This document shows positions 1,597 to 63,037 of a DNA stretch of 64,000 nt, one piece after another. Both the position numbers and the translations under genes were made by a program. Source of the DNA: Hydrolagus colliei (Eukaryota). The stretch lies in NCBI GenBank assembly GCA_035084275.1, contig CM068742.1:127968001-128032000 (forward strand), given 5' to 3'. Under the pieces are notes generated by a model, which had not been told where the DNA came from, did no database searches, and was given only the letters and a program-made list of their open reading frames with translations. Within the stretch, counting starts at the first letter, position 1, and each line of letters begins with the position of its first letter.

Positions 1597-1966
1597 CAAG
1601 ATCTGTAGAAAATCCTTTATAATTAGATAAGGAGGCAAAAATACAAAACCTCTATTATCTGTACCAATCCCAAGTCCCTGCATTCTAGGCACTCAGATAT
1701 AAGTAAGTAAGATATAAGTACTTGCCCTCCATAGAGCAACACATTATGTTAAAATATTTGAAAATGCTTTGCAGAGGTTTTCTATCACGTGTAGTGACTG
1801 AACTCATGGGCAAATGCAGAAGATTGTTAGCCAGGACACAGGAAGAAGTTTATTTATTCTTTCTAAGAGGGTTAGTGCATTTTTGATGAGCACTTGAACA
1901 AGCAGACAGGATGTCAGTTTTTTATGTCTCATCTGAAGGATAGCACTTCCACAAACACTGTAATAG

Positions 1967-2004
1967 CAGTTCTGATGAAGGTTCGTGGACCCGAAACGTT
2001 GACT
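1967..2004 (+). ncRNA. Minimal type I hammerhead ribozyme motif (Penelope-associated)
   Basis: AGUU-CUGAUGA-A-GGUUC-gug-GACCC-GAAACGUU^GACU. Core CUGAUGA 1972-1978 and GAAA 1993-1996; stem II 4/5 pairs; palindromic ACGU in place of stem III; stem I AGUU/GACU. Confidence 0.8.
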
Positions 2005-2097
2005 TACTTTCCTTTCTCCATAGATGCTGAGTGTTCCCAGCAACTTTTGTTTTTATATCAGATTTCCAGCATTTGCAATATTTTGCGTTTTGTTTAG
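1967..2097 (+). mobile_element. Penelope-like pseudo-LTR (pLTR) mini-insertion, 131 bp
   Basis: 11-bp TSD CACTGTAATAG at 1956-1966 and 2098-2108. Sequence matches the terminal repeat of the Penelope remnant at 14083-14214. Confidence 0.85.
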
Positions 2098-2669
2098 CAC
2101 TGTAATAGTGTCAGTCCAGACTTTGAGTCCAAACACCTGACATGGGGCTTGCTCCCCAACCCCAACCTCTGACTTTGAGGTGAGGATGCTACCCACTGAA
2201 CCAGGAGGACACCTACCAATCGTTTTATATGGCATTTTTTCTCTTCAGTGGCAAAGCATTATTAGTCTTGAATTTTACAGAATTCAAGCTATGTCCTGAG
2301 GTTTTTCCGTAGAAGCAGCAAGATGGGGGGAGGGGAAGTGATGTCTCCCATGTCAACTTGCATTCCGATAAACATCACTCTAGACAATGTGGAGCATGAG
2401 AGAGATGAGCGACTTTGAGGTGTCATTTCCCTTCCTATGGCATTATTAAAGCAAAGTAATGCCATAACTCTGAGATCATTTCCTTCCTCATTTCCTTCAT
2501 GGTGTAACCTATTTAGACAAATTCTTTACATTTCTTATCGACACAAGTTTCATGGATATGTTCTTGTCCCACAGATTCCTGAGTAAAAATGACTGATATC
2601 TGATGATTTGCACAACAAAAGTCAATTACTTACATGGACAGATTTGCCTAGATACTACACTTCTATATA

Positions 2670-13981: not shown

Positions 13982-14082
13982 TTCTAGTTAAAAGCTATAC
14001 CTAAAGAGTAAAAAGCTATGTCTCAATTTTGTATCAATATGCATGTATTTTTAAAGCTAACTTGTTATATGGGAAAAAAAGG

Positions 14083-15500
14083 CAATATACTGCAAATGCT
14101 GGAAATCTGAAACAAAAACAGAAATCACTGCGCACACTCAGCAGGTAAGGCAGCAACTATGGAGAGAGGAAAAGTGAGTCAACATTTTGGGTCCAAGAAC
14201 ATTTATCAGAACTGGGGCATAGTGGGAGGGAGAGGCTTTTAAGTACTAACAAAGAGGGAGAGGGAACAACAACAAAAACAAAATTACATTTATTTCACAT
14301 CGGGAGGACGTCCCAAGGCGCTGAACAATTAGGTTGGGACCCGATCAAGGTAGGGGTGGGGTGGGGGGGGGGGGGGGGGGGGGGAGTGAGAGTGGGAGGG
14401 TAGGGGTGTAGGAGAGTAGGAAAGGGAAAGAATTAGGAGAGCAGCAGAAGGCACAGTTGAAGAGGAAGGTCTTGAGACTGGCCTTGAAAGAGGAAAGGGA
14501 GGAAGATAGGCAAAGGGATTGCAGGATGGAGTTCCAACGTGTAGGGGCAAAGAGGCTGAAAGCCCAGCCACCAATGGTAGAGTGGTTCGGGCAAGGGACA
14601 TGAAACATGGCAGAGCCCACTGAACGGAGGGGATGGGCAGCCTGATAGGGAGACAGTAGGTTGGAGAGATAGGTGCAGGCAAGGCCGTGAGTGGCCTTGA
14701 AGGTGAGGACGAGGATCTTGAATTCAATCCTCTGGGAGATGGGGAGACAGTGGAGACGGGCAAGGGTGGAAGTGATATGGTCACTGAGCCGAGTGCGGGA
14801 GAGTACTTGAGCTGCAGAGTTCTGAATAATCTGCATCTTGTGAATGGAGGAGCTGGGAAGGCTGAGGAGGAGAGAGTTCCCGTAGTCGAGCCTTAATGTG
14901 ATGAATGAGTGGACGAGTGTTTCGGCAGTGTCAGCGGTGAGGCAGTGGCGGAGTCTAGCAATGCTGCGGAGGTGGTGGAAGGCAGTACTGGTCATGGTGC
15001 GGATTTGGGGGAGGAAGGATAGTTTGGGGTCAAACAAGACGGCCAGATTCCTGACTGGCTTCGAGATATGGCAAGTACAGCCTTGGATACTGACGTTGCC
15101 AGTGCCTGAGGTGCGAAGATGCTGACGTGAGCCAATCAGGAGGGCCTCCATCTTTTTGACATTCAGTTGGAGGAAGTTGTCCCTCGTCCAGGATTCAATG
15201 TCGGACAGACATGCAGGCAGGGCAAGGAATAGAAAGCAGAAAACGAGGTATTGGTCAGGAGATGATGGGTTAAAGAGGTGTTAATTTGACAAACAAAAGG
15301 GAGAGATTCCAACAAAACTGGAGAGAAGGGGTGTTAATAACGTGAAACAAAGATGGGATATGGTGGCCAAAGAACAGGTTGATAAGACAGTTGCAGAAGA
15401 AGGGGAAGATGAGCTGTCATGGCCTGAAATTATTGAAATCAATATTAAGGCCAGAGGGCTGTAAGGTCCCAAGCAGATAGATAAGGTGCTGTTCCTTGAC
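14083..15500 (-). mobile_element. Penelope-like retroelement 3' remnant (GIY-YIG C-terminus, UTR, pLTR with decayed hammerhead), split by an L2
   Basis: 15500->15417 translates VKEQHLIYLLGTLQPSGLNIDFNNFRP*, the E..(W/L)I..L.T..P.GLN end of the Penelope GIY-YIG endonuclease. 14177-14214 minus reads CAGTTCTGATAAATGTTCTTGGACCCAAAATGTTGACT. Confidence 0.8.
14265..15222 (-). mobile_element. L2 LINE 5'-truncated copy (ORF2 C-terminus)
   Basis: ORF 14345-15151: VRNLAVLFDPKLSF...AETLVHSFITLRLDYGNSLL...LPISQRIEFKILVLTFKA...GGWAFS...FKASLKTFLF; (GTT)n tail at about 14265. Confidence 0.95.
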
Positions 15501-18310: not shown

Positions 18311-18464
18311 GGTGTGGTAATGGGGTTCACCCCCCAATATAGCTCCAGTGTGCTAACTGGCATCAGCAAAGGCAAAACAGGCTGAATTGCATCCTTATAT
18401 ACTTTTGTTCTTCATCTGTTAAGATACATTGAATATCAGAATTTGTATATATATTCAAATCACG

Positions 18465-18705
18465 AAATATTGCAGATGCTGGAAATCTGAAACAAAAACA
18501 GAATTCGCTGGAAACACTCAGCAGGTCAGGCAGTATTTATGGAGAAAGGAAAGTGAGTCAACACTTCGGATCCATGATGGGGCATGTTGGAAGTGAGTGA
18601 CCCAGTTCTGACGAAGGGTTGTGCACCCAAAATGTTGACTCAGTTTTCTTTCCCCATAGATGTTGCCTGACCTACTAATGATTCCCAGCAACTTCTGTTT
18701 TTCTT
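18465..18705. mobile_element. Inverted pair of Penelope pLTRs with a decayed hammerhead (18603-18640)
   Basis: Left arm (minus copy) TGCAGATGCTGGAAATCTGAAACAAAAACAG...GTGAGTCAACA. Right arm CAGTTCTGACGAAGGGTTGTGCACCCAAAATGTTGACTCA...CCAGCAACTTCTGTTTT. Confidence 0.8.
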
Positions 18706-40182: not shown

Positions 40183-40519
40183 TAATAATAATCTTGCATT
40201 TAATATAGCACTTTTCATATCTTCTAGATATCTCAAACCCTTCACAGAATATAGTGAATAAAGTGAATTGACTGTATATTTGTGGCGAAACATGGCAGCC
40301 GATTGCTTACAGCAGTGTCCCACAAACAGTCAACAACAACAACAACAACTTGGATTTGTATAATCATGGATTGAAATGACCAATTTACTATCTTTTTTAG
40401 GGATTATTACTAGGCATGTGGAGTAAGGAAACTTGCCGAAGGTTTTACCCTGCCTGGAATTTAACCCAGGTGTCCCACTTGTAAGGTGTGTTCTCTAACC
40501 ACTGAGCTATAGGACTCCA
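40183..40519 (-). mobile_element. Full-length tRNA-head/Deu-core SINE
   Basis: Minus-strand head GTCCTATAGCTCAGTGGTTAGAG..CCTTACAAG..CCTGGGTTAAATTCC; core and (TAT)n tail present; L2 tail stub inserted at about 40331-40362. Confidence 0.9.
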
Positions 40520-57824: not shown

Positions 57825-58143
57825 TATAATAGTAATGATAATAATAATTCTTACATTTGATACAGCACTTTTTACGTCTTCTAGGCATCTCAAATCGCTT
57901 CACAGAATATACTGTAAAGTGAATTGACTGTATATTTGCATGCTAAATGCGGCAGCCAATTGTGCACAGCAGTGTCCCACAAACATTGGTGGGTTAAAGT
58001 GATCAATTTATTATTTTTGAGTAATTATTATCAGGAGTGTGGAGTAAGGAAACTTGCCCAAGGTTTTGTGCTGATGTGCCCAGAATCGAACTCAGGTCTC
58101 TCGCTTGTAAGGCGAGTGCTCTAACCACTGAGCTGTATAGACT
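57825..58143 (-). mobile_element. Full-length tRNA-head/Deu-core SINE
   Basis: Minus-strand head CAGCTCAGTGGTTAGAGCACTCGCCTTACAAGCGAGAGACCTGAGTTCGATTC; core; (TAT)n tail. Confidence 0.92.
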
Positions 58144-62723: not shown

Positions 62724-63037
62724 TTAATAATAATGATGCTTGAATTTAATATAACACCTTATCACGTCTTTTAAATGTCTCAAAGTGCTTCACAGAATAT
62801 ACTGTAAAGTTAATAGATTGTGTTATTTGTGGGTGAAACGCGGACAGCCAATTGCGCACAGTAGTATCCTACAAACAGTCATGGGTTGAAGTGACTGAAT
62901 TATTATTGTTATTTCTCTTGAGGGATTATTATCAGGCATATGCAGCAAGGAAATTTGCCAAGATTTCACCTTACCAGGAATCAAACCTAGGTCTCTCGCT
63001 TATGAGGCTAGTGATTTAACCACTGAACTACAGGACT
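62724..63037 (-). mobile_element. Full-length tRNA-head/Deu-core SINE
   Basis: Minus-strand head GTCCTGTAGTTCAGTGGTTAAATCACTAGCCTCATAAGCGAGAGACCTAGGTTTGATTCC; core; (TAT)n tail. Confidence 0.9.

Follow-up and report, generated by a model that had tools for sequence, protein, structure and literature searches.

The 64,000-nucleotide window of Hydrolagus colliei DNA analysed here carries an insert of 131 bp whose first letters, CAGTT, are followed directly by the hammerhead core sequence CUGAUGA. This raises the question of why a mobile fragment should begin at a ribozyme motif: as an element in its own right, as a random remnant of a longer one, or as the product of a defined step in copying. 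The features of the locus, in positions of the window, are as follows:

1904..2215 (limits approximate): older dispersed repeat interrupted by the insert; we take it to be a SINE on the minus strand
1956..1966, plus strand: left target-site duplication (TSD), 11 bp, CACTGTAATAG, exactly repeated at 2098-2108
1967..2097, plus strand: short unit of a Penelope-like element (PLE) that extends from the hammerhead edge to the tail and belongs to the oldest subfamily, on an 8.5% end branch
1968..1971, plus strand: 5' strand of stem I (AGUU); skip junctions at the edge begin most often with A1968
1972..1979, plus strand: hammerhead core CUGAUGA (1972-1978) with an extra A (1979) between positions 9 and 10.1
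1980..1992, plus strand: stem II, 5 bp with a GUG loop, GGUUC/GACCC, strands 1980-1984 and 1988-1992, one U-C mismatch
1993..2000, plus strand: GAAA core and loopless palindromic stem III, GAAACGUU; predicted cut after 2000 from hammerhead numbering
2001..2004, plus strand: 3' strand of stem I (GACU), pairing with AGUU at 1968-1971
2029..2030, plus strand: junction at which 12 nt present in the family are deleted
2046..2057, plus strand: T-rich end of the pseudo-LTR (pLTR), the proposed inner priming site, where inverted partner copies begin (49/60 adjacent inverted copies start at +89 to +106)
2058..2096, plus strand: tail, made up of 34 nt and 5 more that match the beginning of the element 5' UTR; the proposed outer priming site
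2098..2108, plus strand: right TSD, the second copy of CACTGTAATAG

An earlier note on this DNA had described a mobile unit that splits a SINE and is flanked by an 11-bp duplication. The duplication is exact at both flanks, the interruption is confirmed by 7 of 14 fetched relatives of the repeat, which align through the empty site without the insert, and the piece was inserted as one unit. CUGAUGA, the extra A, stem II with its single mismatch, GAAACGUU and the pairing of GACU with AGUU all lie where they had been read; the core boxes, the extra base at 9/10.1 and the palindromic stem III give the motif the geometry of a minimal type I hammerhead. The window holds five copies of the unit, the nearest lying 12 kb from the insert, and only the copy at 1967-2097 retains an intact core; the note had called it the best preserved. 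It carries a G-to-T change at 1982, which disrupts a stem II pair retained in most copies. The length of 131 bp is real for this copy but does not describe the family, whose unit measures about 143 nt; 12 nt are missing here between short direct repeats. This deleted form has 19 exact matches in the genome and is spread over short, truncated and long copies alike, and 131 bp is therefore not a family length. In a tree, the copy sits on an end branch of 0.085 within the oldest of three subfamilies. It is a dead, old and decayed end-piece of a known kind of PLE, an ordinary fossil.

The Penelope origin proposed earlier is borne out by longer copies, which carry, upstream of the unit and on its strand, a pyrimidine-rich 3' UTR, GIY-YIG, a Cys linker and RT motifs. 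The RT motifs are visible in translation without a Pfam RT match, and the Pfam GIY-YIG match (E = 0.0034, 18.1 bits) lies below the cut-off of 22.6. Between RT and EN, L048 and L189 show a C-x4-C-x2-C linker; a Cys zinc-finger linker is given as a mark of Neptune or Nematis PLEs (10.1101/2021.04.23.441226). The order 5' UTR-RT-EN-3' UTR-unit is found in L398, L401, L406 and L407, and the unit stands at both element ends in L398, L400, L401 and L406. Three of these loci (L398, L401, L406) read partial unit, 5' UTR, RT, EN, 3' UTR, unit, showing that the unit is a repeat at both ends of the element, and the 34-nt tail continues into the 5' UTR of the element body, which shows that a front repeat exists. 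Typed from these domain, linker and repeat features, the insert is the hammerhead-to-tail repeat of an abundant Neptune-type PLE. The window also holds, at 14074-14214 and 15417-15497 (both minus strand), a longer member of this PLE family whose hammerhead has decayed; the end of its ORF lies upstream, separated from the unit by an insert of about 950 bp that is presumably LINE-like. At 18456-18702 two units stand head to head, with the tail on the minus-strand copy and both cores damaged, a typical inverted PLE insertion.

To locate the 5' ends of the family, copies were picked by an exact 3' tail motif only, a selection blind to the 5' end, and positions were counted from C3 of CUGA. The first sample comprised the first 90 of 742 matches, reduced to 87 by dropping the segmental duplicates L036-L038, and the second the first 70 of 1,044 matches from a younger subfamily. 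Copies start at -7 to 0 in 31/87 and 31/70 cases, respectively. When the samples are pooled, 94 of 157 copies reach this edge and 62 of them stop within its 8 bases, against 3.5 expected (p ~1e-64). At the edge 12% of copies stop per base. The rate is 0.47% on its downstream side and 0.44% on its upstream side, and near the predicted cut site it is 0.49%. The earlier note had asked whether 5' ends pile up among genome copies; they do, and their piling at the hammerhead edge rules against the random extreme 5' truncation that it had offered as one reading. TSDs were found in 35 of 61 short non-inverted copies and in 0 of 301 shuffled pairs, and those of the short copies mostly abut or show 1-4 bases of microhomology. 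The 5' ends of these short copies, hereafter stubs, are therefore real. The same edge recurs among the 60 adjacent inverted copies found in the 157: 49 start about one tail length short, and 31 of the 60 stop at the hammerhead edge. Of the copies with 5' UTR behind the unit, nine reach the edge, and six of these begin between -7 and -2. None of the six RT-bearing copies that enter the front repeat starts there, one beginning at -154 and five at +38 to +95. The starts of these five (L398, L400, L401, L404, L406) lie within the front repeat, on the downstream side of the predicted cut site, in a small sample. A candidate cap-derived G was scored by eye in 14/26 cases, with a pattern whose first letter excluded most long copies, and in 6/15 in a second count. 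PolyA single-cell runs, whose organism is possibly another, and contigs contain reads from many copies on both strands, in which neither starts nor ends pile up; this is evidence neither for nor against an RNA start at the edge. Among the RNA reads, a GGG joint was considered as a template-switch (TSO) product; this reading was rejected, the joint being likely a genomic copy with a short inverted tail.

Upstream of the edge, 20 of 27 long copies have a TTAA-type box at a distance of 28-30 nt from the A at -4; one copy has it at 36 and six have no match. The box stands at promoter distance in all three subfamilies. From consensus and spacing, we assume it to be TATA-like, off the consensus TATA, and the A at -4 to lie in an Inr-like context. 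Four near-identical loci on one contig (L035-L038), segmental duplicates of a divergent variant, have a TTAA box 36 bases before the edge. In 437 loci, 35 skip junctions were seen. Ten of them resume between -8 and -4, with the A at -4 as the point of return in six; because two of the ten are adjacent loci sharing a junction, 9 are independent. The remaining 25 lie dispersed over about 2,600 bases, a spread of landing sites that is biased by the inclusion of loci fetched with 5'-region queries. In L390-L394, L396, L399, L429, L434 and L192, a unit starting at the edge is fused straight to the element 5' region. Seven of the 18 loci with 5' UTR behind the unit consist of a unit, a partial 5' region and a second unit from the edge, without a preceding 3' UTR. 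In the insert the A at -4 is A1968, where we infer that transcription of the element RNA would start.

We consider it probable that the edge is the RNA start, and that a stub arises when RT primed at the tail of the front repeat runs off that start. The fixed stop before the ribozyme motif, shared by hundreds of pieces, likely marks the start of the element RNA, where the copying enzyme would run off or jump to another RNA. The main rival places at the edge a strong site of RT arrest on a continuous RNA, caused by a bound protein, a ribozyme dimer or the C-rich run; stubs would then come from the 3' repeat, and skip junctions would be jumps within the same RNA. Arrest would suit the 32 of 94 copies that pass the edge, the RT-bearing copies without starts there, and the 3' extension into the 5' UTR, which does not separate short from long copies (the short ones reach no further, p = 0.25). 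However, the stop falls on the far side of the hammerhead, after its structure has been copied, the stop rate is equal on either side of the edge, and a box is found at promoter distance in every subfamily; we hold arrest to be unlikely, though it deserves weight. Splicing was also weighed: the sequence leading up to the edge has a pyrimidine tract, a branch-like motif and CAG, and at the Drosophila Penelope hammerhead a D. virilis intron is described as ending at helix I (PMC4209133), so that stubs might be copies of RNA spliced at a 3' splice site. Against this, none of the 62 stubs has element sequence upstream, and the seven landing sites read are scattered and have no GT donor, two of them sharing CAG with the edge. 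On these sequence grounds the edge junctions look like template jumps, and we reject splicing as very improbable. That the hammerhead cut itself gives the template its 5' end has almost nothing left in its favour. The five RT-bearing copies that stop beyond the cut site would agree with it, but no more than 3 of the 157 ends fall 2 nt or less from that site, which is the background rate and no excess, a single one of the 60 inverted copies ends there, and the stubs contain the whole, uncut motif. For the stubs this reading is refuted.

The earlier note had offered a non-autonomous, retrozyme-like family as its other reading, and fixed ends, TSDs and high copy number would fit a short unit that propagates itself, as a retrozyme monomer or SINE-like element mobilised by the PLE protein; vertebrate retrozymes are reported to derive from pLTRs (10.64898/2026.07.22.740005). 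Such a family should form its own lineage. In a tree built from 63 short units and 25 long ones, the short/long label changes 25 times, compared with a mean of 22.1 after shuffling, and 500 of 500 shuffles need as few changes, in a tree of weak resolution (132 columns, many open forks). Each of the three subfamilies holds short and long copies, and long copies also show the 12-nt deletion. The upstream box is absent from stubs, which would therefore not be transcribed on their own. No tandem repeat with at least two complete hammerheads, as in retrozymes, was seen at the insert, which stands singly and has no tandem partner. The idea of a self-propagating family is thus largely refuted and, to us, highly improbable. 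On the evidence of the tree and the 5' ends, the stubs are neither random truncations nor a family of their own.

Observed across the family are a parent element, two fixed 3' ends, one sharp 5' edge, TSDs, uncut hammerheads and jumps at the edge. In the run-off reading that we prefer, Pol II would start at the edge, set by the TTAA box and the Inr-like bases, from a promoter lying in the upstream 3' UTR. The element RNA would be terminally redundant, with the unit at both ends, and the protein would prime on nicked DNA at the pLTR end or at the tail. From the front repeat, about 143 bases would be copied across the uncut hammerhead before run-off, and the short cDNA would join the target by microhomology or jump to another element RNA. 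The spread of 5' ends over -7 to 0 counts against this model, and the RT-bearing starts at +38 to +95 and -154 are not explained by it. Several of its steps have counterparts in other PLEs. An anole PLE was found in vitro to prime internally at the pLTR end and the tail and to use uncut RNA as template, and cleavage by its hammerhead requires protein (PMC11167929). In Drosophila Penelope, the upstream pLTR promoter is described as driving the downstream copy (PMC2377424), and rotifer pLTRs are described as containing TATA and Inr-like motifs (PMC3846280).

LTR retrotransposons make minus-strand strong-stop DNA, a short cDNA run off the start of a terminally redundant RNA, which is then transferred to another template. 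We tentatively suggest a similar first step for PLEs, as a possibility that falls short of being probable. Priming at the front repeat would yield a strong-stop cDNA with an uncut hammerhead, which could be integrated as a stub or be passed on to a second element RNA. If passed on to the 3' repeat, it would restore a promoter-bearing pLTR, and the copies reading unit-5' UTR-unit would be misdirected transfers. In contrast to the strong-stop DNA of LTR elements, the product here would be primed by nicked target DNA and would often integrate as it is, so that the likeness is one of analogy and not of membership. If such a step exists, the hammerhead at the RNA start would be less a cutter than a structural or protein-binding element.

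The element belongs to a known class, and its motif, tail and inverted copies are known features too. EN+ Neptune-type PLEs (10.1101/2021.04.23.441226; PMC3846280) are described with the same RT, Cys linker and C-terminal GIY-YIG, pLTR repeats, adjacent inverted copy, tail of 30-40 bp, TSDs and heavy 5' truncation. Their truncation is presented in these accounts as variable, whereas here, of the copies extending as far as the edge, two thirds stop at it, and, unlike the EN+ PLEs described there, some units here are fused at the edge base to the element 5' region. The minimal type I hammerheads of metazoan PLEs described in PMC4209133 share the core boxes, the extra 9/10.1 base, G10.1-C11.1, the palindromic 15.2-16.2 and a short helix I, and are likewise mostly solitary and thought to derive from truncated PLEs. 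That paper proposes cleavage and circularisation, whereas the stubs here are uncut and no ends pile up at the cut site. PAc, the Poseidon element of Anolis (PMC11167929), resembles our family in two priming sites that bound the tail, internal priming, an uncut RNA template, and a product length determined by the template's 5' end, as proposed here; it differs in belonging to another clade and having an ORF that starts in the hammerhead, and its natural 5' end is unmapped in the main text. Non-LTR retrozymes (10.64898/2026.07.22.740005) also combine a small pLTR-related unit, a type I hammerhead and dispersed monomers, but the account given there defines them as tandem repeats with at least two complete hammerheads, whereas the copy at 1967-2097 is single and the stubs have no lineage of their own. 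In the literature searched, consisting of main texts with few subscription papers, we found neither a fixed 5' edge nor jumps at it described for PLEs. PMC2377424 states that no obvious mechanism is known for the regeneration of pseudo-LTRs, and the role of the PLE hammerhead is called unclear in 10.1101/2021.04.23.441226. The family pattern bears on both questions and makes that of the pLTR testable: thousands of copies provide a base-level map of template ends, indicate that the templates of stubs were uncut, and preserve jumps at the edge, and precise predictions can be drawn from the pattern for CAGE and for the in vitro PLE assay already available.

The hammerhead motif itself is not due to chance: genome-wide its full pattern is matched 2,610 times and the reversed control 9 times, whereas CUGAnGA alone occurs 49 times in the window against 37.7 expected, barely above chance. 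Rfam gave no hammerhead in the window at E values up to 10; the minimal form lacks stem III. In 48 tail-picked copies, the core boxes, the extra base at 9/10.1, G10.1-C11.1 and the palindromic stem III are the majority letters. Conservation in family copies is 0.91 for the core and 0.91 for the downstream unit, with loss of CpG. Stems I and II show no compensatory double change in 14 rows, with 91% of cells paired, and the subfamily alleles in the stems are one-sided changes that preserve pairing. Judged from these alignments, copies decay neutrally once inserted. A young sub-lineage (L305, L339, L358, L359, L365, L367) has C for U at the base of stem I, turning U-G into C-G.

The earlier note had also raised the possibility that the insert cleaves a host intronic RNA. 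The hammerhead fold of the copy at 1967-2097 reaches -2.1 kcal/mol compared with -9.3 for a rival fold, while three family copies have hammerhead folds of -7.3 to -8.8 kcal/mol and retain stems I and II in their best folds. The folding stability of the insert is not above that of shuffles (z -1.05). No host exon was found, with 0 Pfam matches among 100 ORFs scanned of the 183 unmasked ORFs in the window. Cleavage of host RNA by this copy is therefore unlikely: it is single, without a near partner, a stem II pair is broken, a rival fold competes and no host exon was found. Even intact minimal hammerheads are reported to cleave poorly, and not at all as monomers (PMC4209133; review PMC6765202), and 8 of 9 frog retrozyme dimers assayed are reported not to cleave (10.64898/2026.07.22.740005).

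Two further observations concern the rest of the window. A short inverted repeat at 1556-1596, about 370 bases before the insert, gave a weak microRNA-family match below threshold. On the minus strand, 40445-40516, 58079-58134 and 62966-63037 gave tRNA-like Rfam matches, which are probably heads of another SINE family.
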